A stretch of DNA of 64,000 bases from Candidatus Aenigmatarchaeota archaeon (GTDB lineage: Archaea > Thermoplasmatota > Thermoplasmata > Halarchaeoplasmatales > Halarchaeoplasmataceae). Below the pieces are notes generated by a model that worked only from the letters and a program-made list of their open reading frames with translations, was not told where the DNA came from and ran no database searches. Every line of letters begins with the position of its first letter. Position 1 is the stretch's first letter. Location of the stretch: the NCBI GenBank assembly GCA_046537845.1, contig JBKHKA010000006.1:1486-65485 (forward strand), read 5' to 3'. The translations under genes and the position numbers were made by a program. Of this stretch, positions 17,316-58,010 are shown piece after piece.

Positions 17316-18776
17316 ATGAATAGAAAAACGTCGAAAAGAAACAACCCACCCCCTACACCTAACAACCAAGAAAATTTGAAGAAAAAGATCAATTATCTGA
17401 AAAGAGAGTTGAATCAATGCCAAAAAGAGAAAAATGAGCTTCTCAACGAAAAAAAGATCGAGCTGAAGAACAAGGAGGATGAGATCGAGGAGCTCCGATA
17501 TAAATTGAAGCAATTAGAGGAAACTCCCAGCACTTCTCCCGAAAACACCGAATTGGTCAACGAACTCCAAGAGGAAAACAAAGAATTAAAAGAAGAAAAC
17601 GAACAGCTGATCATGGAGAGTAATCGATTAGAAGAACGTGTAGAGAGTTTAGAAGAGGAAAACAGAGACCTAAACAAACAACTAGAAGAGGTGAAAGAGG
17701 AGAACAAACGGCTAATGCGAGAACTGGAAAAATACAAAGACGAAGGTAAGATCGGGTTCAACCTTCCCTCAGGAGCTGAGATCAGAGGAGATATCGAATC
17801 CGATGATCTGATCCAAGTGGAGAACAATGTTAAGGTGCTTGGGTCTCTCAAATCGAAGATAGACATCATTCTTGGACACGGAAACGAGGTGAGAGGTGAC
17901 ATAATCTCTGAAGGGGGCGCCGTCAAGATAGGGAACGCCAGCGAGGTGGGGGGTATGATCAAAGGTGAAGAAGTCCACCTGGCCGAAGGTGTGAAGGCCA
18001 AGCAAGTACAGGCGAATGAAAAGATGGTGATAGAGAAAAACTGTAAAGTCTCAGATATCATTGCTTTGGGTGATGTAAAGTTGGGAGAGAACGTAGAAGT
18101 CGACGGTTCTTTAGAATATGCAGGTAATTTCAACGCTTCTAAAGGTGTAAAGATAACGAAGGCCGTTATCCCACGCTCGGAAGAAGAATTAGAAGAAAAA
18201 TCACAAGAAACTTTAACGGAAAAACCTGCCTTCCCTCCGGTGATAGTAAGAAACGAATCAGAAATACCTGAAGATGTAGCGGAAGAAGAACGAGCTCTCA
18301 TGGAATCGGTTGAAAAAAAGATGGACGAAGTCAGAGGTGCGATAAAATCGGCTAGGAAACAGAGGATGGATATCTCCGAAGAGAGAGAACTACTCAGCCA
18401 GGGCGCCTCTTTTTACAAAGAAGGAGAATATGAGAAAGCAGAAGATCTGATATCCCAATGCCTCTCTCAGCTCAAAGAAAAGTTATCTGAGGGGTCAAAG
18501 GCTGAAAAAGGGGTTGATAAAGAAGAACCCTCACTCGATTCGGTTATCGAAGGGGTGGAAAATGAACTCGAAGAGGAAAAAGATAAAGAAGAGGTCTTGA
18601 AGGACTTCACCAGCATCAGAGGTATCGGACCTTCCGTAGCGGAAAGACTGTATGAAGGAGGATTCTATTCTTTAGAAAAATTGAAGAACGCCTCCGTCGA
18701 GGACCTACAAAATGTCGAAGGGATCGGCCAGGCTTTCTCCAAAAAGATAAAAGAAAATATTTCTTCGGAAGATTAA
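17316..18776 (+). CDS. coiled-coil protein with central bactofilin-like beta-helical repeat region, helical hairpin and C-terminal (HhH)2 module
   Basis: The N-terminal ~140 aa is heptad-rich (E/K/L/N). Residues ~150-285 carry short G/V/I-periodic repeats (IRGDIESDDLIQVENNVKVLGSL...EVRGDIISEGGAVKIGNASEVGGMIKGEEVHLAEGV...) like polymer-forming bactofilin/DUF583 proteins. The C-terminus is IRGIGPSVAERLYEGGFYSLEKLKNASVEDLQNVEGIGQAFSKKI. Confidence 0.65.
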   Translation: MNRKTSKRNNPPPTPNNQENLKKKINYLKRELNQCQKEKNELLNEKKIELKNKEDEIEELRYKLKQLEETPSTSPENTELVNELQEENKELKEENEQLIMESNRLEERVESLEEENRDLNKQLEEVKEENKRLMRELEKYKDEGKIGFNLPSGAEIRGDIESDDLIQVENNVKVLGSLKSKIDIILGHGNEVRGDIISEGGAVKIGNASEVGGMIKGEEVHLAEGVKAKQVQANEKMVIEKNCKVSDIIALGDVKLGENVEVDGSLEYAGNFNASKGVKITKAVIPRSEEELEEKSQETLTEKPAFPPVIVRNESEIPEDVAEEERALMESVEKKMDEVRGAIKSARKQRMDISEERELLSQGASFYKEGEYEKAEDLISQCLSQLKEKLSEGSKAEKGVDKEEPSLDSVIEGVENELEEEKDKEEVLKDFTSIRGIGPSVAERLYEGGFYSLEKLKNASVEDLQNVEGIGQAFSKKIKENISSED

Positions 18777-18811
18777 AGTCAATTTTTCTATCTCTAGTCT
18801 CTACTAGTGTC

Positions 18812-32530: not shown

Positions 32531-32532
32531 GA

Positions 32533-34633: not shown

Positions 34634-34662
34634 TTTTAAAAGCACCACTACGGTATTAGAGA

Positions 34663-37318: not shown

Positions 37319-37389
37319 ACCCTCTTCCGATCTTTCCTTTTTTGAACGTAATATTTTTAATCCAGAAGCTGTTATAAGTGGGCGATAGA

Positions 37390-37776: not shown

Positions 37777-37808
37777 GACACTACGAGTCCAAAGTTTTTC
37801 CTTTATAC

Positions 37809-38696
37809 ATGACCCATGAGACAGCTTTTGCTGGAGCAATTTCTGATTTCAAAGATGCAGATTATTCCATAGTGGGGGTCCCTTATGACGGGACTTCTTC
37901 TTTCCGTTTAGGGAGTAAAAAAGGCCCTGATAGGATCAGAGAGGCTTCGTACTGCTTCGAGCCGTATCTTTTTGAATATGACATATGTTTGAGGGACGTA
38001 GCTCTCCATGATCATGGAGATATCTCTAGAGTAGACGATCACTTTAGATTGAAAGATTCACTGAAAGATACGATAAGAAAGATCGTCAGTAGAAAAAAAT
38101 TTCCTATCGTGTTGGGTGGAGAGCATTCTATTTCACCCATTGTGGTATCAGCTTTAAAAGAGGAACATGAAGACCTCAATGTTTTGATCCTAGATGCTCA
38201 TCTGGATTTCAGGGATGAATATGAAGGGATGAAACACAGCCATGCCACGACATCTCGAAGGATATCGGAGATCGTCGGTCTGAATAATACATTTGTTTAT
38301 GGGGTGAGGTCTAAAGCTGAAAATTATGCATCTGAAGATACACCTAAATTCTTCACCTGTGAAGAGATCCACGGTGCTCAGGATGGTGCGGGTGAAGAGG
38401 ATAGGCGTCCAATAGAACGGGTCTTAGCCGATATAGACGAGCCGGTCTATCTCTCCATGGATATGGATGTGGTGGATCCCTCTTTCGCTCCCGGAGTGGG
38501 TAATCCTGAACCCTTCGGACTGAACCCATCAAAGATAAAAAAATTGATCTCTAAGATATCGCCCTCCTTTGTAGGAGTAGATATAGTAGAAGTGTGTCCT
38601 AAACATGATACTTCGGATACAACGTCCAACCTCGCTGCTAGATTCGTTTATGAGGTGATCGGTGCCAGAGAAGCAAGGAAGGCTACGGAAGAATAG
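37809..38696 (+). CDS. speB: agmatinase (arginase family)
   Basis: Ureohydrolase metal motifs are present: GGEHSIS, LDAHLDFRD, SMDMDVVDPSFAPGVGNPEPFG. Confidence 0.9.
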   Translation: MTHETAFAGAISDFKDADYSIVGVPYDGTSSFRLGSKKGPDRIREASYCFEPYLFEYDICLRDVALHDHGDISRVDDHFRLKDSLKDTIRKIVSRKKFPIVLGGEHSISPIVVSALKEEHEDLNVLILDAHLDFRDEYEGMKHSHATTSRRISEIVGLNNTFVYGVRSKAENYASEDTPKFFTCEEIHGAQDGAGEEDRRPIERVLADIDEPVYLSMDMDVVDPSFAPGVGNPEPFGLNPSKIKKLISKISPSFVGVDIVEVCPKHDTSDTTSNLAARFVYEVIGAREARKATEE

Positions 38697-38782
38697 TCAG
38701 TCAGGTTAGGTAGAACCCTACAACTCATGCATGGGAAAGAAAAATCTTAAAGTGGTTTCCTAGTTCGCCAGTTCGAGTCCTT

Positions 38783-39877
38783 TCAACTTACTTCTTTTAT
38801 CCCTTCTTTTTTCACGTTTTCGGGAGCGCTTAATATCTGTTTAGATTTAACCCCAGTAGCGACCAACATCACTTTGAGCTTCTCCTCGAGCGTTGGATCG
38901 ACACTGCAGCCCCATATTATGTTGGCACCTTCACCGGCCTTTTTCTCCACTTCTTCAGCTACGAGTTCGGCCTCATGTACGCTCATATCTTCTGGTCCCG
39001 TCACATTGATCAGTACTCCAGAAGCGCCAGCTATCTCTACATCTAAAAGTGGTGAATTTATCGCGGCCTCGATAGCCTCTATCGCTCTTTTATCTCCTCC
39101 AGCATCCGATTCACCCATGCCTATCATAGCTTGTCCGGCTCCTTCCATTATCGTCTTTAGATCGTTATAATCGAGATTGACAAGACCGGGTTTCGTGATT
39201 ATCTCCGTCATACCTTTGATGGCTCTCATCAGTACCTCATCTGCTACTTTGAACGCCTCTTTTAGAGGCAATCTCGGAACCAGTTCTAGAAGTTTATCGT
39301 TCGGTATCAGGATCACAGTGTCGGCAACGTTTCGTATCCTTTTCATACCCCATTGAGCGTTTTTCATCCTGGATTGACCTTCGGCCGTGAAGGGCTGAGT
39401 CAGCACCGCTATCGTGAGGGCACCAGCGTCTTTTGCGACCCTTGCCACTGTTTCTATAGAACCAGTACCTGTCCCGCCGCCGAGTCCGCAGGTCAGGAAA
39501 ACGATGTCGGAATCGGTCAAGATATCTTCGAATTTGTCTTTCGCTTCCTGCGCTGCTTTCTCCCCAACTTCGGGTTTAGCACCCGCTCCAAGGCCCTTCG
39601 TCAAGTTTCTACCCATCAGGACCTTCCTGTTAGCTCGGATGCTCAAAAGATCCTGTGCGTCGGTGTTACCAGCTATGAGTTGAGCCCCGTGTATACCTTC
39701 TTCTGATACCCTATCTATGGTGTTACAGCCGGCACCCCCTAGACCTACGATCTGGATGTTGGTCCGGAGGGACTTTAGAACATCCCTGAGTTCCTCGTCC
39801 GTCTCCGTGTCTTGATACCCCTTTTGGCTTGTATCTTTATCTTTTTCGGAAAGAGCTTCATCTACCAATGATTCCAT
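38783..39877 (-). CDS. ftsZ: cell division GTPase FtsZ
   Basis: [13 protein letters not shown], the tubulin signature [10 protein letters not shown] and [11 protein letters not shown]. There is an acidic N-terminal extension. Confidence 0.95.
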
Positions 39878-40015
39878 AGTTCATCTCCTCATATGACTTC
39901 TCATCTGCTTCATAATTAACAAACTCTTATTAATATTTATGGATAGAATAGATTTTTATATTCGAAGAAGAACCAATTTTATATAGGTATTTTGCCTTTA
40001 GAAGCGAACGATAGG

Positions 40016-41389
40016 ATGGAAAAAGATTTAACGGTCATCGGGAGCGGGCCCGGAGGATATGTAGCAGCGGTATTGGGAGCGAAAAAAGGGTTAGATGTCC
40101 AGGTAGTAGAGAAAGAAACCATAGGAGGAGTCTGTACCAATAAAGGTTGTATACCTTCAAAAGCGCTCCTCTCAGTGGCGGAGAAGATCGATACCATCAA
40201 CGGAGCTAGAAGAGACGGACTCAACGCCTCACTTGACGGTATCGATTTCAGAAAGGTCATGACAAAGAAAGACAGGGCGGTAAAGATATCTAGAAAGGCT
40301 ATAAGAAGCCTTTTCGACAAACACGGGATAGAACTCATAGAGGGAACGGCAGAAGTGATCAGTCCAGAAAAAGTAAAAGTCAAAAAAGATGATGGAAGCA
40401 CAGAGACTTTACTATCTGATCACACCATAATAGCTACAGGTTCCGAACCGATATCCCTCCCAGGTCTAGAGGTAGATGAAGAGGATATACTATCCAGCAG
40501 AGGGGCTCTGAACTTGACAGAGATACCCGGATCGATGTTGATAGTCGGTGGAGGATACATCGGGATAGAGATGGCTTACATCTTTTCTTCACTCGGAACC
40601 GATATCACCATAGTAGAATTGGAGGACAGAGTATTGCCCACCATGGATAAAGACTTGAGCAGCGTGGCAACACAGATGATGAAAAGAAAAAGGATAGAGG
40701 TTTACACCGAGTCTAAAGTTGCAGGGGTGGATAAAGATGGAGAACTAAATGTCAAGATAGAGGGAACTACCGAAAAAGAGATGAAGGTGGAAAAGGTTCT
40801 TAGCTCTGTGGGTAGAAGACCGACTCCCCCTGAAGTAGAGCTTGATATAATAGGAGATAGGGGGGAGATCGAAGTGGACGATCACATGAAAACGGCAGTA
40901 GATAACCTATATGCTGTAGGCGATGTCACCGCCGAGTCCATGTTAGCCCATTCGGCCTTCAAGCAAGCCGAGATAGCTGTAAACCATATCTTAGGGGAAA
41001 ATGTGAGAGGGTTTTCCGAGTATTTTATCCCTGCTGGGATCTACACCCATCCCGAGATGGCTAGTGTGGGATTGACAGAAAAAGAAGCGAATGAGAGACT
41101 CAGTGACGTCAATGTCGGCAAATTTTCTATATCCAGAACAGGCAGGGGATCGTCAACTGGAGAAAGAGCTGGACTCGCAAAGATCATCGCCGGCCCCGAC
41201 AATAAACTCGTGGGTTTACACCTCGCCTGTCCCGGAGCAACTGATATAATCATGGAGGGCACTGCAGCCCTTGAAAAAGATATGGATGCAGAAGAATTTG
41301 CAGAGATGGTACATCCTCATCCAACATATTCAGAAGCTCTAAAAGAGGCGGCGGAGAACGTCTTCGGAGAAAGTGTACATTCGGGCTGA
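40016..41389 (+). CDS. lpdA: dihydrolipoyl dehydrogenase
   Basis: VIGSGPGGYVAAVLGAKKG (FAD), the redox disulfide GGVCTNKGCIPSKALL, an NAD fold GGGYIGIEMA and the C-terminal HPHPTYSE. The ATG at 40016 is preferred. The track TTG at 39992 lies in the promoter. Confidence 0.9.
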   Translation: MEKDLTVIGSGPGGYVAAVLGAKKGLDVQVVEKETIGGVCTNKGCIPSKALLSVAEKIDTINGARRDGLNASLDGIDFRKVMTKKDRAVKISRKAIRSLFDKHGIELIEGTAEVISPEKVKVKKDDGSTETLLSDHTIIATGSEPISLPGLEVDEEDILSSRGALNLTEIPGSMLIVGGGYIGIEMAYIFSSLGTDITIVELEDRVLPTMDKDLSSVATQMMKRKRIEVYTESKVAGVDKDGELNVKIEGTTEKEMKVEKVLSSVGRRPTPPEVELDIIGDRGEIEVDDHMKTAVDNLYAVGDVTAESMLAHSAFKQAEIAVNHILGENVRGFSEYFIPAGIYTHPEMASVGLTEKEANERLSDVNVGKFSISRTGRGSSTGERAGLAKIIAGPDNKLVGLHLACPGATDIIMEGTAALEKDMDAEEFAEMVHPHPTYSEALKEAAENVFGESVHSG

Positions 41390-41479
41390 AGGGTTTATAC
41401 TTTGATCCGAGAGAAAGAAAGATATAAATAGATAAAGAAATATACTAATTTGATCTTGGTAAGTAAGCAGGTGAAGGGC

Positions 41480-41881
41480 ATGGAGAACCACAGCGAGTAT
41501 GGGATGCGGAAGGCGGATGCGTCTGATGAGGGCTTCGAAAGAAGTATAGGTATGTCAGAGACCGAAGGACTCGAAACGGAGATGGTGGACCTTTTTCATA
41601 TCAATCATCTCGATCCAGATTACATCGTTCCCTGGTGCGAGAAAGGACTGAACTATCTCAGAAACGATGAATACAAAAAGGCGATGGAATGCTTCGAAAG
41701 GTCTATTTCAGCACGAAAATGGGACTCTAGATGTCTCTATTGGTATAAGAGAGGGATGTTCCACCGTCAAAGAAAAGAACTAGAAAAGGCCAAACTTTGT
41801 TTTGAAAAGGCCATCAACAGCTTACTCCATTCTTCCAATATGATGTACGATATGAAAAACCACGTTTTCCGCAAAATATAG
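41480..41881 (+). CDS. small TPR-like protein, function unknown
   Basis: It has two TPR-like hairpins (EYKKAMECFERSI and ELEKAKLCFEKAI). The ATG at 41480 is preceded by AGGTGAAGGG. Confidence 0.45.
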   Translation: MENHSEYGMRKADASDEGFERSIGMSETEGLETEMVDLFHINHLDPDYIVPWCEKGLNYLRNDEYKKAMECFERSISARKWDSRCLYWYKRGMFHRQRKELEKAKLCFEKAINSLLHSSNMMYDMKNHVFRKI

Positions 41882-41928
41882 ATTCAAAACAGAAGAGAAG
41901 AAATCTATAAAGGCAGGAACAAAGAGGA

Positions 41929-43698
41929 TCAGTTCTGAATTTCTCTCTTTTTCTTCTCTAATACCCTGAATAACTGGTATATCTCTTTTAGAGCCTGGTC
42001 TAGGTCTCCACCGTTCGCTTTCTCTTTTATCTCTTTCAACTCCTGACTGGAGGCAGAGGTTTCCACGCCCAACTCTCTTATCTCCCTCAATTCTTCCTTC
42101 GCCCCCTCGAGTATAGAAGAAAATAAAAGCACTTTCTGGATAGAGACCAATTCCTTGTTCAAAATCTTTAGACTCTCAACTAATTCTCCCGATTTGCCGA
42201 GTTCCAGAGCCTCCTTCACCTCTCTTTTTATATTTTTCAGGTCTAGACCAGTTTCTCTTGCGATCCGCATGTTTTCCCGTATCTTCATCAATCTCTCTTT
42301 GAAATCACTCTCTAATTTTTTTTCCTCCTCCGATGTTGGTATGTTTTTGAGAATTTTTGCTATCTCTAGCGCCCTAGAGTACTCTCCTTCTCTGCACTTT
42401 TCCTCTATCCTCTTCAACTCGCTTTTGAATTCCTCCGCTGCCCCATCTGTTGAAACTTTCCTTCTCGTAGATCCTAAATCAGACAGATGGTCCTCAAGGT
42501 CCTGGAGGTCCTCTACATCCAAAACCAATTCGAGAGATATTTCCAGCGCTTTGTCATATTCGCCTCGTTCCTCATGGCTTGAAAGAATCTTCAATCTTTC
42601 CTCTATGGGAGTCATGTCAATGATCTCATCTTCTATATTTTCTAATACGCCCTTTATGTAAGCCTTATCTTCCTCCAACTCTCCCGGATAACCTTCATGT
42701 CTCTTCCATTTTTTCTCCGGCCCTTCCAATTCTTCATGATGCTCGCGCTCTTCGGTCTTTCTGACTCCTTCAACTTGCTCCGTCTCTTCGACCGGTTCTG
42801 GTCCTTCGATCTCTTCAAATCCTTTCGATCCATCACTCATCTCTACTCCTTCGGACCCTCTCTTTTCTTCGATCCCATCTTCACACTCCCCTTCTACCAG
42901 CTCAACATCGTCGAAAAACTGATCAGCCTTTTTTCCCTCAGAATCCTTCACATCATCTACCTTCAGCCTTTCCTCGCCCGAAGGGAGATCAGTTTTTGTT
43001 ATATCTTCCTCCTCCGGTTCAATCTTGACTTGGGAAGATTTACAGATGGGACATCGATCCATGCCTTCTTTCAAAGGTGTTCCGCATATGGCACACACTC
43101 TTTCTCCCTCATATCCTTCCTTCTCTTTCCCCTCCCGTCCACTCGGCTCTTGATCAGAAAGAGGTTTTCCACATACTGGACATTCGTCCTCCGCGTTCTC
43201 AATAGAGGTCCCGCAGACCGAACAGACCTTTGGCGAGAGTTCCTCGGTCCCTCCTGTCGACTCCCTGATATCAGCTTCTTCCTCCTTATTTTTTTTACCT
43301 CTCTTTGCTCTCTCTTCACATCTGGGACATTCTTCTAGGTCTGCTCCCATCAAAGTTCCACATGTTCCGCATATCTTCAGCCTGCCTTCCTCATCTTTTA
43401 CGTCCTGGATAAAATCATAGATCTTCTCAGCAGTAGTCGAACCAATACCCTGGATAGAGGCGAGTTCTTCCTTCTCCATCCTTTCTAGATCCTTCACCCG
43501 GGACAATCCAGCGATAACCACCTTTTCCGCTCTCGCCATTCCCACGTCCGGTATCCTTTTCAGGTTATCGAGCACCTGTTTCTCTTCCTCGTCAAGATCC
43601 ACCAAGCTGCCGCAGATCTCACACCTATCTACATCAGGTGGATTTTTGCTGCCACAAGCTGGACATTCGAGATGATCTTTTTTCACTTGGTCCACCAA
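41929..43698 (-). CDS. protein with four zinc ribbons, an HhH module, an acidic linker and C-terminal helical-hairpin repeats
   Basis: Four CxxC..CxxC units are present (CPACG..CEICG, CGTCG..CPRCE, CSVCG..CPVCG, CAICG..CPICK). The HhH is IPDVGMARAEKV...IQGIGSTTAEKI. The likely real start is TTG 43698 or GTG 43695, about 30 nt downstream of a TATA (CTTATATATC). The track N-terminus MKFLIFIIFIFF is promoter read-through. Confidence 0.65.
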   Translation of the reverse strand: MVDQVKKDHLECPACGSKNPPDVDRCEICGSLVDLDEEEKQVLDNLKRIPDVGMARAEKVVIAGLSRVKDLERMEKEELASIQGIGSTTAEKIYDFIQDVKDEEGRLKICGTCGTLMGADLEECPRCEERAKRGKKNKEEEADIRESTGGTEELSPKVCSVCGTSIENAEDECPVCGKPLSDQEPSGREGKEKEGYEGERVCAICGTPLKEGMDRCPICKSSQVKIEPEEEDITKTDLPSGEERLKVDDVKDSEGKKADQFFDDVELVEGECEDGIEEKRGSEGVEMSDGSKGFEEIEGPEPVEETEQVEGVRKTEEREHHEELEGPEKKWKRHEGYPGELEEDKAYIKGVLENIEDEIIDMTPIEERLKILSSHEERGEYDKALEISLELVLDVEDLQDLEDHLSDLGSTRRKVSTDGAAEEFKSELKRIEEKCREGEYSRALEIAKILKNIPTSEEEKKLESDFKERLMKIRENMRIARETGLDLKNIKREVKEALELGKSGELVESLKILNKELVSIQKVLLFSSILEGAKEELREIRELGVETSASSQELKEIKEKANGGDLDQALKEIYQLFRVLEKKKREIQN

Positions 43699-43830
43699 GT
43701 CGGTTGTAATTATAGCTTTAAAAGATATATAAGTTTTGTGAAAAAATATGAAAATTATAAATATTAAGAACTTCATCCCCGTTAAAAGGAAATTAATTTA
43801 ATATAGGAGTGTATTAGGGGATGAGATAAG
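43699..43830. promoter_or_regulatory. AT-rich divergent promoter region shared by the zinc-ribbon/HhH gene and the IleRS-like gene
   Basis: TATA-like elements face both ways: CTTATATATC on the minus strand at 43724-43733 and AATTTAATATAGG on the plus strand at about 43795-43807. Each lies about 25-35 nt from its start codon. This rests on pattern only. Confidence 0.35.
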
Positions 43831-46800
43831 ATGGGAAATATTCCAAATTTCAACCCTCGGGAGATGGAGGAAAAGACTCTGGAGAGATTGGAATCCAACG
43901 ATATCGATGAGAAAGTAAAGGATTCGAGGAAAGGCGGCAGGAACTATTATTCTGTTTACCCTCCTTTATCGATCAAGGACGACCTCAATTGGGATGATCT
44001 GTATAAGATCTTCTTGTATGACGTTTGGAACCGATTCAAAAGCATGGAAACTTTCAATGTCAGGCATGGCCTGGGGTATGATCCTTACAATCTGAGAGTG
44101 GAAAGGTCTGTCTTTGAAGACCAAGAAGATGAAAGGAAACTGTTGAGGGGCGTGGATGATGAAATTTGGGATGAGATAATAGATGAGCTGAATGAAAAAT
44201 CCGATGAGTTCAAAAACGAGATGACGGACCAACTTCGTGACTTTGGACTGTGGAGAAATCTAGAATTCGAATACGATACCAGGACAGAATCTTTTGTGGA
44301 TTCTGTCTGGTGGGCTGTAAAAGAGTTGATAGAAAAGGACCTCCTCATGAAGGAGGAAAAACCGGTCACCTGGTGTCCAAGATGTAAATCACCAGTGGTG
44401 GATACAGAGACACTTCAAAAGGAGCAGACCAAAGAGAAGACTCTGTTGAAAATACCGACATCAGGAGGAAAGGAAAGGTACTTTTTGGTAGAAGTAGAAG
44501 ATCCTTGGATGCTGCCTTCCAGCATGACCCTAGTAGCTGACCCAGAAGAGACCTATGCCGTGGTAAGGTATCTCTCACAGGAAGAGAAAGCCATTCAGCT
44601 CCTCATGAGGGAAGATAAAGTAGAAGAGATGATGGAGAAGGGGGGGGTAGAAGAATATGAAGTCGTCAATACGGTAGAGGGTGAAGATCTGGAAGGGCTG
44701 AGATTCAAGTATCCGCTTTTTGATAAAGTATCCGCTCATACAGACCAGGAAGGGAAATACATCCATAAGATAATGTGCTCAGAAAAGATAGAAGGGGAAG
44801 GAACAGGTCTAGTTTTACTCACCCCCCCACATGACGAAAAACATTGGAAGATAGCCAAAGAGAACGGCTTGAGTATCTACAACCCAGTGGCTAAAAACGG
44901 ACACTATGATTCCGGGGTCAGGGAGAACAAATATTCAGGACTTTCCGCCCCCCAGAGCGATCAGATAATCTTAGATGACCTAGAATCCAAAGATCTGATT
45001 TTCTCGAGGAAAGAGGGAAAAAAAGAAGTCAAATTCTGCGCGGCCTGCCTAAACAAAGTAGTTAAGATACCCCATAGAGAATGGTTCTTCAACGTATCGA
45101 GGAAAGAGGATACCGTCAAAAATATACTTGAAGATGTAGATCTCATCCCTCCTGAAGAAGATATAGACCTGAGAGATTGGATAGTGACCAGGAAGAAGCG
45201 TTGGGGGATATCTTTTCCCCGATGGCGATGTAACTGCGGAAACTCTTTCGTGCCCTCCGATCGATCCGATCTGGCAAATAATTCAGATTATAACGAAGAG
45301 GATCCAACCACTCCTGACATAATCTCTGATGTGAAGATAGAATGTGAAGAGTGCGGAGAGATGATGGAGTGGGAAGGGAAGATATTGAATCCTATCTTCA
45401 TACAGGCCTCTTCACCCTGGGCGCAGCTCGGTTACCCCACTAAAGAAAAAGAATATCAATCGTGGTGGCCTGGCGAGATATTCATAAGTAAAAATGCAAA
45501 AAGAGACGACCTTCTCACCGCAACTGTGACGCTTTCAGGAGCTCTCTTCGAAGAAAACTCTCTTAAAAACATGTTGATGCAGGGTCCTATAGTCAGCGAG
45601 ATCGATTACAAGGACGTTAGAGGTTTAACGGAGAAGCAGGGTTATGATTCTCTGAGATTATACATGCTTTCAGGGGATCCGCCCTGGAAAACCCGGAAGA
45701 TAGAGGGAGAAGATCTTCAGTACACGCATCCTCTAGTGAGAGTTCTGTGGAACTTGAAGAGCTTTTTAAAGGATCATCTGGAAAAACACGAGGCCGAACC
45801 CGGTGAAACCACTCTCGAGTTCCTCAAACAAAACTTGGATTTCGAGGACGAATGGATACTGTCTTGTGTAGAATCAACAAAAAGCAGGGTGAAAGAATCA
45901 TATGAAAGAGCCCGATACGATGAGGCTATAGAGGAGCTTAAGAGTCTGGTGATGGAGGATTTGGCCCAATGGTATTTCAGCCGTGCGAAGGCCAGACTTG
46001 AAGGAAAGGATGACGAAGATGTTATCTCATCTATCTTGAAGGTGCTTTACGAATCCATGATGTCGGCTGCCAAGATGATCGTTCCGATCTCACCCTTCAT
46101 CGCTGAGAATATATACGATGATCTGGACGGGAAAGAAGAATCCGTATTTCTGTGCGATTGGCCCGAGGCAAATCAGCTCTTACAGAATCAGGAATTAGAA
46201 GGAAATATGGAAGAGATCAAAAATATAGTTGGAGATATAAAAGGTATCAAGCGGAAGCACGGGATACCCGAAAAATGGCCTTTGAAACACATCGTATATA
46301 AAGGGAAAAGCAGCGAGTCCATGAACGTCGTCAAAAGGTTCGGAGAGATGATCAAAGAGAAAGCGAAAGTCGAAAACATAGAAACCGTGGAACCGGATGA
46401 AGAATGGGATGAAAAGATACTAGAGGTATATCCAAATAAGGAGGCCATCGGAAAGGCATACCAGCAGTGGAAAAGCAGGATCGCCACCATGCTCAACCAA
46501 AGGAAACCTGAAGAGATAAAAGAAGGCGTCGAAAGGGGTGATTTCACCATAGGTATCCAAGGACAGATAATCGAGATAAAGCCGGAGATGGTCACTTTCG
46601 AAGCAAAGCTCCCAGAAGGTTTTGAGGAGATCACTCGAGAGGAACAGGAGATCTACGTGGACCTCGGTATATATGCTGACATCTGGGATGAGATGATGGC
46701 GAAAGAAACAATCCTAAGATTGAAGAGCATGCGGGAAGATTTTGATCTGGAGGAGCAGGATGAAATTGAAGCCTATATAGAAGCCTCTGAAGAAGTGGCT

Positions 46801-47805
46801 GAAGCTCTAGACGTACACAGAGACATGATAGGGAAAGAGGCAAACGTAAGAAAACTATCCATCAATAGAGAAGAGGAGGAAGAGCTTGAATACGTATATG
46901 AATGGAATATCAACGAAGAGGATGTCGAAATCGGGATCATCCCTCTTTATAAAACAAAACTTTTGGAATACTACCAGACCTTTTCCGGCATAGACCAAGA
47001 GATCGCCGAGAACTTGTACAAGGGAGGATTCACCTCTATGGAATCTCTAGCCAACGCTTCTGCTTCAGAGTTATCTGATATAGAGGGGATAAAAAGATCC
47101 CTCGCTAGGAGTATGATCCAGGCCATGGAGGAGGAGACGAAAGAAGTCGAAGAAGGTGGAGAGGAAGTCGAAAGGATGAAACCTAGCCTGGAAGAAAGAG
47201 AGAAACAGGTGGCAGAAAGGACGGAAACGGAGGTCGAAGGCGAAGAGTCCCGAGAAAGCTATCCCTCCGAGGGTCGAAAGGCATCTGAAGGTTCAGCCGA
47301 AGAGGAAACACCAGAAGAGGAAGAAAAAAAGACTTTGCCAGAAGGTATCTCAAGGAGCTCGACTTATCTTATAGATGAAAGAAATTCTGATGAAGAATCG
47401 TCTTTCGAACTGTTCAAAGAGATCTTAGAAACTGGTGAAAAAGGGCTCTGCGTGACGCGAGATTATCCTGATAAGGTCAGAGAGAAATATGGGCTAGAAG
47501 ATGTAGAGATCGTATGGCTCTCCAATGTTGATAGAGAGGATGTCATAAGGCCGAAGAGCCTGGAAAAGTTCAGCTTGACTATAGAGAATTTCCTGACCAA
47601 GAAGAAGGGAGTCATCCTGCTGAACGGTCTCGAATATTTGATCACTAACAACGATTTCAGAACCGTTTTACATCTGATCCAGTCTATAAAAGATCAGGTC
47701 GCCATCAACAAATCGATCATGATGATCCCGGTGAACCCGGCGACACTGGAAGATAACCAGATGGATCTTTTGACCGGGGAAGTTGATAAGGTCATAGAGC
47801 CATGA
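43831..47805 (+). CDS. IleRS-like class Ia aminoacyl-tRNA-synthetase paralog with degenerate catalytic motifs, fused to an (HhH)2-like module and a C-terminal DUF835-like domain
   Basis: It is collinear with IleRS (FNPREMEEK..., VTWCPRCKSPVVDTE, DWIVTRKKRWGISFPRW, GYDSLRLYMLSG). The HIGH position reads PPLSIKDDLNWDD and the KMSKS position reads DYKDVRG. The C-terminus is EGIKRSLARSMI (HhH) followed by GLCVTRDYPDKVREKYGLEDVEIVWLSNVD... (DUF835-like). Confidence 0.8.
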   Translation: MGNIPNFNPREMEEKTLERLESNDIDEKVKDSRKGGRNYYSVYPPLSIKDDLNWDDLYKIFLYDVWNRFKSMETFNVRHGLGYDPYNLRVERSVFEDQEDERKLLRGVDDEIWDEIIDELNEKSDEFKNEMTDQLRDFGLWRNLEFEYDTRTESFVDSVWWAVKELIEKDLLMKEEKPVTWCPRCKSPVVDTETLQKEQTKEKTLLKIPTSGGKERYFLVEVEDPWMLPSSMTLVADPEETYAVVRYLSQEEKAIQLLMREDKVEEMMEKGGVEEYEVVNTVEGEDLEGLRFKYPLFDKVSAHTDQEGKYIHKIMCSEKIEGEGTGLVLLTPPHDEKHWKIAKENGLSIYNPVAKNGHYDSGVRENKYSGLSAPQSDQIILDDLESKDLIFSRKEGKKEVKFCAACLNKVVKIPHREWFFNVSRKEDTVKNILEDVDLIPPEEDIDLRDWIVTRKKRWGISFPRWRCNCGNSFVPSDRSDLANNSDYNEEDPTTPDIISDVKIECEECGEMMEWEGKILNPIFIQASSPWAQLGYPTKEKEYQSWWPGEIFISKNAKRDDLLTATVTLSGALFEENSLKNMLMQGPIVSEIDYKDVRGLTEKQGYDSLRLYMLSGDPPWKTRKIEGEDLQYTHPLVRVLWNLKSFLKDHLEKHEAEPGETTLEFLKQNLDFEDEWILSCVESTKSRVKESYERARYDEAIEELKSLVMEDLAQWYFSRAKARLEGKDDEDVISSILKVLYESMMSAAKMIVPISPFIAENIYDDLDGKEESVFLCDWPEANQLLQNQELEGNMEEIKNIVGDIKGIKRKHGIPEKWPLKHIVYKGKSSESMNVVKRFGEMIKEKAKVENIETVEPDEEWDEKILEVYPNKEAIGKAYQQWKSRIATMLNQRKPEEIKEGVERGDFTIGIQGQIIEIKPEMVTFEAKLPEGFEEITREEQEIYVDLGIYADIWDEMMAKETILRLKSMREDFDLEEQDEIEAYIEASEEVAEALDVHRDMIGKEANVRKLSINREEEEELEYVYEWNINEEDVEIGIIPLYKTKLLEYYQTFSGIDQEIAENLYKGGFTSMESLANASASELSDIEGIKRSLARSMIQAMEEETKEVEEGGEEVERMKPSLEEREKQVAERTETEVEGEESRESYPSEGRKASEGSAEEETPEEEEKKTLPEGISRSSTYLIDERNSDEESSFELFKEILETGEKGLCVTRDYPDKVREKYGLEDVEIVWLSNVDREDVIRPKSLEKFSLTIENFLTKKKGVILLNGLEYLITNNDFRTVLHLIQSIKDQVAINKSIMMIPVNPATLEDNQMDLLTGEVDKVIEP

Positions 47806-47834
47806 AGTTCTTGGCGTTTTAGAAGGTGTTTCCG

Positions 47835-48731
47835 ATGGATATCGCTATCATAGGTCCTGGAGCCATGGGTACTTTTCTTGCCGGTCTACTGGCTAAAGAG
47901 AACAAAGTGACTTTATTCGGTCGTCGGGAGCATCAAGATATCAATAAGGTGAAGATAAAAGGTAAGACCGAACTGGAGATAGGAGTAGATTATGCCACGG
48001 ACTCCAGTAAATTGGCGGATGTAGAACTCGTCGTCATCTGCACTAAAGCCTTCGATACTGAAGAGGCGATCAAGAGTGTCGTCGATCACATACCTTCGAA
48101 GTGCGACATACTCTCTCTACAGAACGGATTGAAAAATGAAGAGATCATCGAGGACAATGTAGGCGAAGATCGCACTATAGGCGGGATCACCAGCCACGGT
48201 GTGACTTATCTAGGGATCGGAAAGGTGAGACATGCAGGGGAGGGGGAAACGGTGATAGGGGCATACCCTCACGGGGATCGAGCGGAGATAAAAAAGGTCG
48301 CCTCTACATTGAGCGAGGCTGGGATGAGAACGAAAATCAGCGATAACATACTGGGACACATATGGAAAAAAGTGATTATCAATGCTGGTATCAATCCGAT
48401 TACCGCATTATTAAGGATCAAAAACGGCTTTCTGTTGGAAGATAAGGATCTTCTTGCCCTGTTGAAAGAGGCTGTGAAAGAAGGTACAGAAGTGGCCGAA
48501 AGATATACCGATCTGCCTTTAGAGGACCTATTCGAGAAGACGAAAAGGGTGGCAGAGAGCACCGCTGAAAACCGATCCAGCATGCTCCAAGATATCCTGA
48601 ACAACAAGAGAACCGAAATCGACCAGATCAACGGGGCGGTGGTGGAAAAAGCTGACGAGTGCGGTATTTCCGTTCCGGTGAATAAAAGTCTCTATCGACT
48701 GGTCAGAGGGATGGAAAGTACTTATCTCTAG
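47835..48731 (+). CDS. panE: 2-dehydropantoate 2-reductase (ketopantoate reductase family)
   Basis: MDIAIIGPGAMGTFLAGLLAK (Rossmann fold) and an ApbA C-terminal domain with SSMLQDI and TEIDQINGAV. Confidence 0.85.
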   Translation: MDIAIIGPGAMGTFLAGLLAKENKVTLFGRREHQDINKVKIKGKTELEIGVDYATDSSKLADVELVVICTKAFDTEEAIKSVVDHIPSKCDILSLQNGLKNEEIIEDNVGEDRTIGGITSHGVTYLGIGKVRHAGEGETVIGAYPHGDRAEIKKVASTLSEAGMRTKISDNILGHIWKKVIINAGINPITALLRIKNGFLLEDKDLLALLKEAVKEGTEVAERYTDLPLEDLFEKTKRVAESTAENRSSMLQDILNNKRTEIDQINGAVVEKADECGISVPVNKSLYRLVRGMESTYL

Positions 48732-49954
48732 ATCCTTTCGCCAAGAAGATAAACGTCTTCCGCCTTCTTGATATTCACCTTAACCCGTTCACCGATGAGG
48801 TCTTCATCCTCGTTCTTTAAAACCACTACCTTGTAATTGTCCATCCTAGCCTTCAGCGAATCGTTCTTTCCTTTTTCCAATACTAGTACGGTTGTCTCCT
48901 TTCCTACGTACTCTCGGTTCAACTCTCTGCTTATCTGGAATCTCAGCTTGGTCATCTCTTTGGATCTCCTCTTCTTTTCTCTCGAATGAACCTTATTGTC
49001 CATCTCTGCGGCCCTAGTCCCTGGTCTAGGACTGAACCTGGTCACGTTCACTATATCCGGTTTCGCTTGTTCGATCACCTTTTTGGTCCTCTCAAAATCC
49101 TCTTCGGTCTCTTCAGGGAATCCCACTATCACGTCAGTAGAGAGAGTGAGTTCCGGGAACTCCTCTCTGAATTCTTTTGTCAGTTCTTTCCATCCATCCA
49201 CATCGTAATTTCTGTTCATCTTTTTCAGTATGGGATCGGACCCGGATTGTAGAGGAAGGTGGAGAAAGGTGTATATCCTCTCGTCATGCATCAATTCCAT
49301 GAAATCGTCCTTGATCTCCTTCAAGGCATCGACGTTCATCATCCCCACTCTTATGCGGTAATCTCCTTCTATATCCAGCAGCTGTTCGAGGAGTTCGTTA
49401 AGGTCGGTGGAGATATCTTTACCGTAAAGAGCCGTATCCTGACAGGTCAACCTGATCTCTTTAGCCGAGGAGGAGACGAGTTCTTTGAAACGCTTTTTTA
49501 TCCTTTCGGGCGGTCTGCTGGTCAAACTGCCTCGAGCGATCTTGGTTATACAGTAGGTGCAGTTTCCATAACATCCGGAAGCTATGGGTATGGTACCTAT
49601 GATATTGTCTTCCATTGGCGAAGAAGTCATCTTCACCTCTTGTGGCTGTATGAAGTCTAGCAGTGACTCTAGATAAGCGAAGTTATCTTTGGATCTTCCA
49701 GAACTTCCGTTAGATATGGAGGACAAACACCCTGAGACCATCACCTTAGAAACTTCTTTCTGCAGCTCTTCGATCCTGCGCTTCATCCTCTTCTCGGTTT
49801 TCTGGATCACCACACACGTCCCGATCAGAGCCTGGTCCGCATCCTCCAATGAATCCACTCTCCGGTGACCCTTTTCTTTCAGAGATTCGGCTATCATCTC
49901 CGTTTCTCCCTGATTCATGGTGCATCCGTAGGATTCCACGTAGAACTTCATCAA
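48728..49954 (-). CDS. radical-SAM methylthiotransferase, MiaB/MtaB (CDKAL1-like) family
   Basis: It has the UPF0004 N-domain (FYVESYGCTMNQGETE), the radical-SAM CxxxCxxC motif (GCYGNCTYCITKIARG) and a C-terminal TRAM-like region. Confidence 0.88.
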   Translation of the reverse strand: MMKFYVESYGCTMNQGETEMIAESLKEKGHRRVDSLEDADQALIGTCVVIQKTEKRMKRRIEELQKEVSKVMVSGCLSSISNGSSGRSKDNFAYLESLLDFIQPQEVKMTSSPMEDNIIGTIPIASGCYGNCTYCITKIARGSLTSRPPERIKKRFKELVSSSAKEIRLTCQDTALYGKDISTDLNELLEQLLDIEGDYRIRVGMMNVDALKEIKDDFMELMHDERIYTFLHLPLQSGSDPILKKMNRNYDVDGWKELTKEFREEFPELTLSTDVIVGFPEETEEDFERTKKVIEQAKPDIVNVTRFSPRPGTRAAEMDNKVHSREKKRRSKEMTKLRFQISRELNREYVGKETTVLVLEKGKNDSLKARMDNYKVVVLKNEDEDLIGERVKVNIKKAEDVYLLGERI

Positions 49955-50043: not shown

Positions 50044-51411
50044 ATGCGGGTCCTACATCTTTCGGAAAAAGCGATAAAAAATCATACTGAAAGGGAATTA
50101 AGAGATCTGGATAGATATTTTGATCCTGATCTCACTTTGGCTTCGGGTTTTGGAAAGAAAAGTAGGAAAAAAAAGGAAGTAGAGAAAGCCAGTTCTTACG
50201 AGACCATATACCTTGAAGACGTCGACGGTTACGAACAGAGGAATTTAGGTGATGAGTCTCTTATAGTGGTAAGGGACGAAGAATCGGTAAAAGAAGCTGT
50301 AAAAGAAAAAGCGTCATTCAAGGGTAAAAGAACTCTAGTCTTCACGGACTTGATAAAGGAGGAGATAGATCAGTCAAGTTTTGAATACAGGTTGATGAAC
50401 ACCTCCATCATAGATAGACTTTCTGATGAGGTGGACAACTTCCACGTATTCTCGACTGAGATGGAAGCCGGAAAGAAACAATCCCATAAAAGCCGATACA
50501 TCTATGGGCTGGGACCGTGTTTCGACAGAGAGGGCGTAAAGATACCTTTTCTTTCAAGCGGGAAAGGTTTTAAAGTGAAGACATTTCCCGCGGAGCGGGT
50601 AGGCCTTCTAGCGATACCTGACCTCGGAAAAAAATTTTCCAACGTTTTGAGAAGAAAAGGTATAGAGGACAGAGCCGCCTTAAAAGAATGCGAACCCGAA
50701 GAACTGATGAAGCAGGAAGGAGTAGGACCCTATCGGTGCACCAAGTGGATCTCTTCCGCAGAAGCAATAGAGGAAGGAAGTGTATACAGGATACAGGAGA
50801 ACGATCTGGAAGGTAAGCACCGGATATATATCGATATAGAGACCGATTCATTAAGACCTAAGATAGTCTGGCATATCGGGCTTTACGACGATGTAGAAGA
50901 GAAATACCTCTCCTTCCTTGAAAAGGAACCCGATAAGAAGGGAAGGATCATCAAGAGATTCGGCAGTTACTTGGAAAAACATGGTGAACCGGAAACTGTG
51001 CTCCTAGCCTGGTACGGGTCGGGTTTCGATTTCAAGGTCTTAGACGACTTCTTTGAAAAGTACGGACAGGAATTTCTAAAAACCTGGCGTCGAACAGAAA
51101 AGGTGGACCTGATGAGATGGGTGAAAAAGCACGCCGTCACCTCCTGCAGGACCTCAAAACTCGATGATGTGGCAGGATGTTTGGGATATGAAAGGGGAAA
51201 GGAGAGCATGGAACTCAGCGGAAAAGAAGTTGCCCGCATCTATTCAGATCACATGATCGGAAGAGGCGGAGAGCCTGACTGGACTTCTCTGAAAGAATAT
51301 GCCAAAGACGATGTGATATCTTTGAAATTTATCTATGACGAGATCAGTCAAGCTCCCATGAAGTACGATCTGAAAGAGATGAAAAAAAGATACAGGAGAA
51401 ACTGTTTTTAA
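50044..51411 (+). CDS. predicted RNase H-fold (DnaQ/YprB-like) exonuclease with an internal HhH module
   Basis: IYIDIETDSL (ExoI-like DxE), LLAWYGSGFDFKVL (ExoII-like) and YAKDDVISL (ExoIII-like). It is preceded by IPDLGKKFSNVLRRKGIEDRAAL...EGVGPYRCTKWI. Confidence 0.65.
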   Translation: MRVLHLSEKAIKNHTERELRDLDRYFDPDLTLASGFGKKSRKKKEVEKASSYETIYLEDVDGYEQRNLGDESLIVVRDEESVKEAVKEKASFKGKRTLVFTDLIKEEIDQSSFEYRLMNTSIIDRLSDEVDNFHVFSTEMEAGKKQSHKSRYIYGLGPCFDREGVKIPFLSSGKGFKVKTFPAERVGLLAIPDLGKKFSNVLRRKGIEDRAALKECEPEELMKQEGVGPYRCTKWISSAEAIEEGSVYRIQENDLEGKHRIYIDIETDSLRPKIVWHIGLYDDVEEKYLSFLEKEPDKKGRIIKRFGSYLEKHGEPETVLLAWYGSGFDFKVLDDFFEKYGQEFLKTWRRTEKVDLMRWVKKHAVTSCRTSKLDDVAGCLGYERGKESMELSGKEVARIYSDHMIGRGGEPDWTSLKEYAKDDVISLKFIYDEISQAPMKYDLKEMKKRYRRNCF

Positions 51412-55699: not shown

Positions 55700-55712
55700 A
55701 TCATTTATATTT

Positions 55713-58010
55713 TCAGTCTGAAAGCTTTTCTGGGTGGAACCTTTCTATCACATCCACGTATTCCTCCACCTGATCCATCGAAAGGTCCGTGATGGAGGCG
55801 ATCTCTTTTTTCGAGTAACCGTCCTTCATCAACCGCTGTACTCGGAGTGGATCCTTTATCTTGTCCTTCTGGACTTTCTCCTTTTGCTTCTCCAGCTTCT
55901 TCTCTTTCTTCTTTAGAGATTTGTTCCTTCGTTTTACCTTCTCTATCCTTTCAGATAGTTTCTCTTCTTTCTCTTTTAATTTTTCATTTCTCTGTTTCAA
56001 CTTCTTTCTACGAGTGGATACTTTCTCTTTTTGCTTCTTGAGCTCCTTTCTCAACTCGGTGATCTCCTCCGCCCTATTATCCAATCTTTCTTCTCTCTCG
56101 TCGAGCTGAGCTTTTCTCTCCGTGAACCTCTCTTTTTTCTGTTCGAGTTCCTCTTCATCCTCCTTGATCTTCTGTTCTCTTCGCTGTAATTCAGTTCTCT
56201 TCTCTTCTATATTGTCCCTTTCTTCCTCCAACCTTTCTTTTTCACTCTCGATACGTTCACTCTCGGTCTCTATCTTTTCGAGTTTTTGTTTGACTTCCTC
56301 CTTTTCATTTTCTATCCTCTCCAACTTTTCGTCAACATATTTTTCCCTTTTCTCGAGATCGTCTTCCCAGGTATCTAATTCCTTCTGTCTTTCTTCCAGC
56401 TCTGATTCCCATTCATTCAAATCTTTCTCCTTGCTGGATATCTCTTCTTCTCTAGCGTCCAAATCCTCTTCGGTTTCCTGGAGTTCATCCCCCAACTCCT
56501 CTAACTCTGATCTTTTTTTGACGATCATCCTTTCTTTTTCACCGAGATTTTCTTCTAATTCTTCTAGTTCTTCCTCTTTTTCTTCGATGTTCTTTCTAGC
56601 CCGTCTGAGATCCTTTAGTTTACTCTCCATATCTTCCTCCCGTTCTTTCAGTTTTTCTTCCCTCTCTTCAAGGACCTCTTCCTCCTCCTCAAGTTCTTTT
56701 GATTTCTGATCCAGCTCTTCTTCCCATGTGGTCAGTTCAGCATCTTTGTCCAACAGATCCTTCTCCAAAGCTTCCAATCTTTCTTCCTTCTTATCGACCT
56801 CCTCTAGAGTCTCTTCGGCCTCTTCCATGAACTCTGCCTTTTCGGCGACCTGCTCCTCTCTTTTTTCGAGTTCTTTTTCCTTCTCCCTTACGTCTCTGTC
56901 TTTTTCTTGTATCTCTTTTATCTTGTCTTGAAGTTTTTTATACTGTTTATTTAATTTTCCTTCAAAGTTGTTAAGATATTCTTCCTTTTTCTCTAATATA
57001 TCCTCCTTCTTTTGCAGATGTTCCTCCTTTGACTCTTCTTCGGATCTTGTTGGGGTCTCTATCTCATCCATCTCCTCTATCTTCTCCTCTCCCTCCGATC
57101 CAATTCTATCAGGAGGCGGGGGTAGTGTAGTTTCCTCATTCGGCTCTGTTTTTTCTTCATCCATATCCGCATCTTCTTTTTCAGAACCATCTCTTGTTTC
57201 TGAGGAAGTTCTAGATGGCATAGCATCGTCCGGATCCATATTCAAAAATCTATCTTCCTCTTTTTCCATAGATCCATCAACAAAATCGGGTGGTGGAGGT
57301 GGATATTCCTGAGATCTATTTACTTTCTTTTTTCGAGTGTTATTTTTTTCCTCGTCCTTTGCCGACATGAGTTCCGGAGGGGGCGGTGGAACGTCCGAAT
57401 CGATGTCGATGGCGGGGCTAGTATCATCATGAGGCCCTCCTCCTCCTCCCTCCGAAGAGAGCTCCGCTTCACCCTCTAGTTTTTCTTCGCTTTCTTCTCT
57501 CAACTCTTCATCTCCCTCTTCCAAACTAGACCCACAGTAAACGCAGTAAGAATCTCTGTCAGAGTTCAGCTGACCGCATCTAGGACACACAACAGTTCCT
57601 TTTTTTTTCTCTTCAGCCGACGGCGAGGCAGTATCTGATTCGATTTCGACTTCGGAACCAGTATCCTCAGGAACTTCTTCAGGCGTCTCTTCTTCAAAAT
57701 TTTCTACATCCTCAGGTGGTGAAGTAGGATTTTCTGATCCTTCAAGCTCATCAGGCTCATCTCCGTTCTCACTGATTTTTTCCTCGGCCAATCCCTTAAG
57801 ATCCTCTGCCTTTTTCGACGTGACATTCCGTATGTCTTCCAGATAGGACACATCTACTTCTATGATCTTCTCAAAATCATCCACTCCGGAATCGTATATA
57901 TTTTCCGCTGTGGCATGACCGATACCATTTACCGTCATCAGGGCATCGAGAAATTCTTCCTTTGGCACGGCCTCGTCTTTATTTTCTTCATCATTACGTT
58001 CATCATCCAT
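55713..58010 (-). CDS. HhH / zinc-ribbon / polyproline / very long E-K coiled-coil protein with C-terminal HTH-like tail
   Basis: The N-terminus is VNGIGHATAENIYDSGV...SKKAEDL (HhH). It has one zinc ribbon (CPRCG..CVYCG) and three PPPP(P) motifs. About 400 aa of E/K/L heptads follow. The C-terminus is GYSKKEIASITDLSMDQVEEYV (sigma-r4/LuxR-like HTH). Confidence 0.75.
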   Translation of the reverse strand: MDDERNDEENKDEAVPKEEFLDALMTVNGIGHATAENIYDSGVDDFEKIIEVDVSYLEDIRNVTSKKAEDLKGLAEEKISENGDEPDELEGSENPTSPPEDVENFEEETPEEVPEDTGSEVEIESDTASPSAEEKKKGTVVCPRCGQLNSDRDSYCVYCGSSLEEGDEELREESEEKLEGEAELSSEGGGGGPHDDTSPAIDIDSDVPPPPPELMSAKDEEKNNTRKKKVNRSQEYPPPPPDFVDGSMEKEEDRFLNMDPDDAMPSRTSSETRDGSEKEDADMDEEKTEPNEETTLPPPPDRIGSEGEEKIEEMDEIETPTRSEEESKEEHLQKKEDILEKKEEYLNNFEGKLNKQYKKLQDKIKEIQEKDRDVREKEKELEKREEQVAEKAEFMEEAEETLEEVDKKEERLEALEKDLLDKDAELTTWEEELDQKSKELEEEEEVLEEREEKLKEREEDMESKLKDLRRARKNIEEKEEELEELEENLGEKERMIVKKRSELEELGDELQETEEDLDAREEEISSKEKDLNEWESELEERQKELDTWEDDLEKREKYVDEKLERIENEKEEVKQKLEKIETESERIESEKERLEEERDNIEEKRTELQRREQKIKEDEEELEQKKERFTERKAQLDEREERLDNRAEEITELRKELKKQKEKVSTRRKKLKQRNEKLKEKEEKLSERIEKVKRRNKSLKKKEKKLEKQKEKVQKDKIKDPLRVQRLMKDGYSKKEIASITDLSMDQVEEYVDVIERFHPEKLSD

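Follow-up and report, generated by a model that had tools for sequence, protein, structure and literature searches.

Helix-hairpin-helix modules as genome-wide accessory domains in an acidic-proteome Thermoplasmata lineage, with a possible role in DNA tethering

Introduction

The tandem helix-hairpin-helix domain, (HhH)2, is a fold shared by the N-terminal domain of RadA, the C-terminus of Hef/XPF and domain 5 of Hel308. Here we describe the use of such modules in Candidatus Aenigmatarchaeota archaeon (Thermoplasmata; Halarchaeoplasmatales; Halarchaeoplasmataceae; GenBank assembly GCA_046537845.1, hereafter G000, with other genomes and contigs numbered likewise), beginning with a stretch of 64,000 nucleotides of contig JBKHKA010000006.1 (the window), in which five proteins, P0001 to P0005, carry a segment of this type. 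The segments have the same fold as the N-terminal domain of RadA/Rad51, the C-terminus of Hef/XPF and domain 5 of Hel308/Hjm (about 55 residues, two hairpins, five helices), and the RadA, Hef and Hel308 proteins of this genome bear the same module. In RadA-type enzymes the HhH assists a DNA-processing core, whereas most of the carriers described here are without a DNA-related domain and hold the module on a poly-acidic linker.

Other described systems offer further points of comparison. PhaC of the haloarchaea Haloferax mediterranei and Haloarcula hispanica has a C-terminal domain of the Pfam family HHH_5, and the PhaC-like hydrolase of the present genome has the same architecture; it is not one of the five proteins and illustrates the use of the module from outside the window. 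L32e of Haloarcula marismortui (1JJ2 chain X, 1S72 chain Y) carries an N-terminal HhH on a ribosomal protein, a parallel to the fusion of S3Ae with HhH reported below, although that fusion concerns a different ribosomal protein, the other protein end and another archaeal phylum. Topoisomerase V of Methanopyrus kandleri, with 12 tandem (HhH)2 copies, and chimeras of polymerases with (HhH)2 exemplify salt-tolerant, sequence-independent DNA anchors (PMC8313265); the former concentrates a long tandem array in a single enzyme, whereas here one to three modules per protein are distributed over many proteins. The AR1/AR2 repeats of NusA and the ERCC1-XPF heterodimer have the same fold with an acidic surface and are protein-protein modules, unlike which most modules of the present genome keep canonical G-h-G hairpins.

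Our findings point to a promiscuous accessory HhH domain, found genome-wide, that would act as a non-specific tether to DNA or the nucleoid. We regard this reading as a whole as somewhat probable, and the tethering mechanism taken by itself as evenly balanced.

The segments are ordinary (HhH)2 domains

Segments were scored with hmmscan and with a six-frame search against HHH_5 (PF14520), whose gathering cut-off is 27 bits. The six-frame search returned exactly five matches in the window; by hmmscan, P0001, P0002, P0003 and P0004 exceed the cut-off and P0005 is borderline. The five open reading frames (ORFs) are real, and the strings quoted for them in the original prediction are all present in their translations. 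Their coordinates and those of their modules are given below (bit scores by hmmscan and by six-frame search, in that order).

17316..18776, plus strand: P0001, with a coiled coil, bactofilin-like beta-helix repeats, an acidic linker and a C-terminal (HhH)2
18600..18752, plus strand: HhH of P0001 (residues 429-479), 46.5 and 49.2 bits, hairpins GIG and GIG
41929..43776, minus strand: P0003, with a zinc ribbon, HhH, three zinc ribbons, an acidic region and a helical/coiled-coil C-terminal half; a shorter start at 43698 is also possible
43402..43566, minus strand: HhH of P0003, 35.2 and 39.4 bits, hairpins DVG and GIG
43831..47805, plus strand: P0002, with an IleRS-like pseudo-synthetase, DUF5915, HhH, an acidic linker and DUF835
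46975..47124, plus strand: HhH of P0002 (residues 1049-1098), 35.9 and 39.8 bits, hairpins GID and GIK
50044..51411, plus strand: P0005, with an N-terminal region, an internal HhH and an RNase_H_2-type 3'-5' exonuclease domain; neighbours NurA and HerA
50605..50763, plus strand: HhH of P0005, borderline at 24.7 and 27.7 bits, hairpins DLG and GVG
55713..58010, minus strand: P0004, with an N-terminal HhH, an acidic linker, a zinc ribbon, a Pro/acidic region and a coiled coil of about 400 residues
57798..57947, minus strand: HhH of P0004, 33.6 and 37.6 bits, hairpins GIG and NVT

Profile scores, sequence matches to solved structures and the predicted fold agree that the segments are of the HhH type, as first proposed. 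A search of the PDB with the module profile recovered Thermus PolX, Haloarcula L32e (second best, 60.6 bits), topoisomerase V, NusA (57 bits for the AR repeats), RadA, Hjm, LigA and XPF. For P0001, the one module that was modelled, AlphaFold2 was supplied with an alignment of the 18 non-canonical modules of this genome (A1) and returned a model with a pLDDT of 88 and helices at residues 2-7, 14-22, 28-33, 36-40 and 47-59. The best Foldseek match of this model is the RadA N-terminal domain (TM-score 0.80, root-mean-square deviation 1.1 Å), followed by NusA AR, XPF/Hef, DisA, UvrC and Hjm; TM-scores against the RadA/Rad51 N-terminal domain, NusA AR, Hef, DisA and UvrC range from 0.76 to 0.84. 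The five segments are independent copies of an ordinary five-helix (HhH)2 domain, Pfam HHH_5.

The module had also been described as having two G[IV]G hairpins, and here the description held in part: the HhH character was confirmed, and both hairpins are intact in P0001 only. Intactness of the G-h-G hairpins, which in this domain contact the DNA backbone, is not a discriminating feature, because the genome's own RadA (GVG/EIG) and Hef (SVS/GIG) are half-degenerate too. At least one canonical G-h-G hairpin is kept by most modules of the genome.

Carriers across the genome

The genome (1.70 Mb) yields a total of 25 HHH_5 matches, a match count rather than an exact copy number, in 22 ORFs on 14 contigs. 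The canonical carriers are RadA, Hef, Hel308, PolX and LigA. The others comprise ribosomal protein S3Ae, a PhaC-like hydrolase, a KaiC-like ATPase, a TPR protein, two giant surface proteins, a four-transmembrane zinc-ribbon protein, a tail-anchored protein and several acidic zinc-ribbon or coiled-coil proteins. The diversity of partners noticed in the window extends to the whole genome, where the partner domains of about 22 unrelated proteins are extremely diverse; the partner modules that recur are DUF835, bactofilin-like repeats, zinc ribbons and coiled coils.

Non-canonical modules are mostly terminal, at either the N- or the C-terminus, and lie beside stretches with 13-31 Asp or Glu per 50 residues. 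A module placed terminally on an acidic linker in this way behaves as an accessory anchor. The two giant surface proteins, G000:C27:1506-7766 (2087 residues) and G000:C35:58716-62699 (1328 residues), both contain InlB B-repeats, combined with Laminin_G in the former and with a beta-propeller in the latter. Both end in one transmembrane helix, basic residues, a long acidic/proline-rich linker and a terminal HhH; since the module follows the transmembrane helix and then the basic residues, it is a cytoplasmic tail on an extracellular protein.

Two further loci were observed. At G000:C6:4930-8689, the genes of PolX (with a PHP domain) and of a NAD-dependent LigA of the bacterial type (with BRCT) lie side by side and overlap; an archaeal precedent for an NAD-dependent ligase is LigN of Haloferax (PMC1684257). 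An ORF of 1866 residues at G000:C28:70394-75991, 40% of which are Asp+Glu, bears at its N-terminus an HhH-like module with two glycine-free hairpins (DIE/QID) that scores 21 bits, below the cut-off.

The S3Ae and PhaC fusions

Ribosomal protein S3Ae (G000:C31:19786-20715, L001; relatives L049-L072) ends in an (HhH)2 module that follows a poly-Glu linker. The family as a whole conserves the fusion, which is also seen in two further families of Thermoplasmata, one of which (G027) is not markedly acidic, and the remaining families have an acidic tail only.

The PhaC-like hydrolase (G000:C21:80636-81919, L012) was compared with L035-L048 and P0006-P0125. Orthologues from non-acidic Thermoplasmata have tails rich in Lys and Arg, with a net charge of +5 to +24, and the same position is occupied by HhH in Thermoplasmata with acidic proteomes and in many genera of Halobacteria. 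In a tree of the catalytic domain, the halophilic Thermoplasmata and the Halobacteria fall on one side of a branch with 98/94 support and the basic-tailed proteins on the other. This topology suggests a single gain of the HhH together with transfer. Two independent gains were also considered and are unsupported given the 98/94 grouping, with compositional attraction of acidic sequences still a possible influence on it. A survey of 21 basic-tailed ORFs of non-acidic relatives included one other orthologous pair in which the K-rich tail is simply absent from the present genome.

PhaC with HHH_5 has been reported to be exclusive to halophilic archaea, and its C-terminus to be essential (10.1101/693432, preprint). 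The papers we consulted make no mention of K/R tails on the orthologues of non-halophilic Thermoplasmata. The HhH phasin PhaH of Caulobacter has been proposed to link polyhydroxybutyrate granules to the nucleoid, according to the work as cited in PMC12028471, and (HhH)2 domains give polymerases and a DNase salt-tolerant, non-specific DNA binding (PMC8313265; PMC4777378).

Enrichment in the lineage

The 18 genomes of the genus contain 11-37 HHH_5 matches each, with a median of 12.2 per Mb (range 6.4-16.8), and 149 evenly spread genomes of the phylum, with the family excluded, have a median of 4.5 per Mb, a 90th percentile of 9.0 and a maximum of 12.5; these densities use rounded genome sizes and cover this phylum. 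The present genome, at 14.7 per Mb, lies above all 149 sampled genomes from outside the family. Because the genus median exceeds that of the phylum and this genome tops the sample, the density is not one that ordinary archaea of this sample share. The idea of a lineage-specific toolkit fares less uniformly: the enrichment is confirmed, and specificity applies to P0001, P0003 and P0004 and not otherwise; several non-halophilic families of the phylum reach 9-12.5 per Mb. The enrichment is real but moderate and lies on a continuum across the phylum.

The proteome of the genus is acidic, with a median isoelectric point of 4.9-5.0 and a DE/KR ratio of 1.3-1.5 in samples of about 20 kb, and fits halophilic Thermoplasmata (Halarchaeoplasmatales). 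Close relatives of one protein come from Thermoplasmata metagenome-assembled genomes, including "Candidatus Haladaptatiplasma halalkaliphilum". HhH density was also considered as a general marker of the salt-in strategy and rejected: the Spearman coefficient of 0.56 in the class sample is carried by the genus and amounts to 0.11 (P=0.63) in 20 other families of the phylum, on a crude proxy of acidity that rests on naively called ORFs from 9-20 kb of each genome and is noisy in high-GC genomes.

Architecture and age of the five proteins

The partner domains differ from protein to protein and were all found as first described: bactofilin-like repeats, a pseudo-synthetase, zinc ribbons, a coiled coil and an exonuclease. 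The first of these is a weak assignment, as P0001 scores 22.6 bits against bactofilin (PF04519), under the cut-off of 27.9; the same family is precomputed for 7 of 9 P0001 homologues. The P0001 gene lies directly downstream of the archaellum region, and its family has only 10 members among 5.8 billion proteins. Full-length orthologues bearing HhH are restricted to G004 and G013, and the other relatives are proteins with different C-termini or paralogues without HhH.

P0002 scores 322.7 bits against the ileS equivalog TIGR00392, well under its cut-off of 621.4. By eye, its HIGH position reads 'PPLSIKDDLNWDD' and no KMSKS was seen; a true IleRS is encoded separately at G000:C3:3486-6542. Proteins that combine an IleRS-like body with DUF835 occur in most families of the class sample alongside the true IleRS, and DUF835 is the best-conserved domain of the P0002 family, ahead of the synthetase-like body; compared by sequence with solved structures, DUF835 gave no meaningful match. 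The 18 orthologues examined have 0-3 HhH modules at the same position, with a zinc-ribbon-like motif in place of HhH in G020, and the second hairpin 'G[IV]KRSLAR' recurs in most orthologues of the genus. Near the archaellum genes of two other genomes, the ORFs G003:C6:75551-78823 (1091 residues) and G011:C1 ~33195-35738 (1148 residues) fuse P0001-like bactofilin repeats with a DUF835 like that of the P0002 C-terminus, a Rosetta-stone link.

P0003 and P0002 are divergently transcribed neighbours, and they lie side by side in eight or more of the genus genomes. The P0003 orthologues of G003 and G011 have no zinc-ribbon and HhH head, and P0002 keeps its HhH in both. The N-terminal head of P0004 is found in G004, G012 and G013 only. 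P0005 scores 83.5 bits against RNase_H_2 (PF13482), above the cut-off, and 40.4 bits against TIGR03491 (TM0106-family RecB-like nuclease), below the cut-off of 97.45; its residues 188-430 cover positions 214-458 only of the latter model, that is, the HhH-like region and the exonuclease half. Full-length P0005 orthologues are present in 15 of 17 genomes of the genus, and none was found outside it at E<=1e-10.

The ages of the modules differ widely. The HhH of P0002 occurs at the same position in most of the Thermoplasmata families sampled and predates the genus, the HhH protein P0005 is genus-wide, and those of P0001, P0003 and P0004 have been gained and lost within the genus. The original prediction had seen a local expansion in the window, with an almost identical core in P0001 and P0002 as the mark of recent domain shuffling. 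A recent burst of shuffling within 41 kb that gave rise to all five fusions, the modules of P0001 and P0002 being young copies of each other, would agree with the presence of 5 of the 25 modules in 3.8% of the genome, with a scan statistic of P=0.014 for at least five HhH genes within 41 kb when 22 are placed at random, and with the P0001 module being the best match of the P0002 module in the genome. The two modules, however, are 35% identical, which places the pair 31st among 300, and the P0001 module is closer to those on C35 and of S3Ae (C31), at 44-45%; the closest pairs of the genome, at 50-62%, belong to surface and membrane proteins on C27 and C35. The supposedly shared string, 'LYxGGFxS...AS..EL', is the consensus of most modules of the genome in alignment A1. 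Recent copying between P0001 and P0002 was accordingly rejected on the strength of the low identity and the wide distribution of the P0002 module. With adjacent pairs counted once, the scan statistic is P=0.055, the five genes are parted by unrelated housekeeping genes, and the central block is kept in G003 and G011 with one module in 160 kb. We therefore judge a local burst to be extremely improbable. That a known domain is spread genome-wide and not locally, without a local burst of shuffling, is the part of the account we hold with high confidence.

Gene neighbourhood

The genes relevant to the arrangement of the window are as follows.

35507..49951: block conserved in gene order, with an M3 peptidase, an agmatinase-like protein, FtsZ, an Lpd-like protein, P0003, P0002, PanE and a MiaB-like protein
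52120-53328, plus strand: NurA, between P0005 and P0004
53361-54863, plus strand: HerA, forming with NurA a DNA end-resection pair

The block of 35.5-50 kb is collinear in G003:C6 and G011:C1; P0004, P0005 and the segment of 18.8-34.8 kb were not found around it there. The arrangement is kept more fully in the closest relatives, G002, G004 and G013, the only ones to retain the clustering, and G004 and G013 also preserve the distance of about 6 kb from P0005 to P0004. The genes that lie among the five are unrelated: a PAS/GAF sensor, a STAND-TPR ATPase, sugar-nucleotide enzymes, 2-oxoacid:ferredoxin oxidoreductases, a peptidase, an agmatinase-like protein, FtsZ, PanE, a MiaB-like protein, NurA, HerA and Cbf5. 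A local cluster acting as a functional unit was rejected on the grounds of these intervening genes, the marginal statistic and the single HhH of the G003/G011 block. The presence of five modules in the window is mostly an accident of gene order, and the count is raised by the conserved divergent pair P0003/P0002 and by the neighbourhood of P0005, NurA, HerA and P0004 in the closest relatives. An unannotated ORF of 242 residues on the minus strand (51433-52161) lies together with P0005, NurA, HerA and P0004, and no Mre11/Rad50 was seen beside NurA and HerA within the window.

Possible roles of the module

In the reading we favour, the module is a promiscuous accessory domain of this halo(alkali)philic genus, mostly placed at the N- or C-terminus on a poly-acidic linker. 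As a putative tether, its hairpins would grip the phosphate backbone of double-stranded DNA independently of sequence, a grip that may be better suited to high salt than lysine/arginine tails, and the host protein would be held on or near the chromosome. A salt-tolerant tether to double-stranded DNA is favoured because the PhaC module occupies the position of the K/R tail, because PhaC with HHH_5 is reported from halophiles only, because of the proposal for PhaH and because fusion to (HhH)2 confers salt tolerance. A more ambitious version, in which HhH on its leash ties S3Ae and with it the ribosome, PhaC granules, P0001 filaments, P0003/P0004 scaffolds and the tails of surface proteins to the nucleoid, HhH having replaced the lysine/arginine-rich tails that serve this purpose at low salt, appears doubtful to us. 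It is likewise rather improbable that adaptation to halophily as such drives the enrichment, with molar K+ screening electrostatic DNA binding and HhH replacing or supplementing basic tails. The acidic proteome of the genus together with the top density of the phylum sample, the PhaC tails, the N-terminal HhH of haloarchaeal L32e among the closest PDB sequences and the salt tolerance of (HhH)2 fusions, which supports the principle, all speak for such a driver; yet density is uncorrelated with acidity over 20 families, non-acidic families reach 9-12.5 per Mb, density varies between 6.4 and 16.8 per Mb within the genus at constant acidity, the PhaC swap is a single event shared with Halobacteria, the small survey of basic-tailed ORFs turned up no second one, and the S3Ae fusion extends to the family of G027.

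Several of these observations weigh against the tether as well. The exchange of the PhaC tail is a single evolutionary event, the small survey of 21 basic-tailed ORFs detected no second swap from tail to HhH, the S3Ae module was added onto an already acidic tail, and the families of the phylum show no correlation between density and acidity. Most modules are themselves strongly acidic, with a net charge of -2 to -14, and hairpin glycines are lost in P0002, in the second hairpin of P0004 and in the modules of C5:40444 and C28. The Foldseek relatives include the NusA AR1 domain, known with lambda N, and ERCC1-XPF, both protein-binding or dimerising (HhH)2 domains that are structurally as close to the P0001 model as the others. 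The 80.6% completeness of the genome and the gap between matches and true copies add to this side. The single swap, the acidic modules, the degenerate hairpins, the missing correlation and the protein-binding kin make a protein-docking network a serious rival, in which terminal HhH modules would pair with one another, as in ERCC1-XPF, or dock on a hub, without DNA binding. The score of 57 bits with the NusA AR repeats agrees with this, as do the recurrence of HhH with the same few partners, the conserved divergent pair P0003/P0002 and an excess of adjacent HhH genes (four pairs, P=0.016), one of which, however, is PolX-LigA, two ordinary DNA enzymes. Strict pairing of the P0003 and P0002 modules is not conserved, because P0003 is without HhH in G003 and G011 where P0002 keeps it; most modules retain at least one canonical hairpin like true DNA binders, RadA itself being half-degenerate; and an HhH in place of a K/R tail suits a polyanion as ligand. 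Docking is unlikely in our view, if less so than the nucleoid-wide and halophily-driven accounts, and the DNA tether remains the reading we prefer.

Significance

HHH_5 is a textbook domain, which this lineage uses unusually often and in new architectures, and for this reason a local expansion by shuffling, as first put, would be no discovery. What deserves to be kept is the preference of the whole genus for HhH as an add-on at protein ends, which is quantified here and is the highest among 150 sampled genomes of the phylum, together with the unusual carriers of the module: S3Ae, giant surface proteins with their cytoplasmic tails, and a pseudo-IleRS. PhaC further offers a natural experiment, with HhH in halophiles against K/R-rich tails in non-halophilic orthologues, which makes the idea of a salt-proof tether as opposed to an electrostatic tail directly testable. 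If true, a salt-proof tether would explain the extensions of haloarchaeal PhaC and L32e and would provide a design rule for DNA-associated proteins of halophiles.

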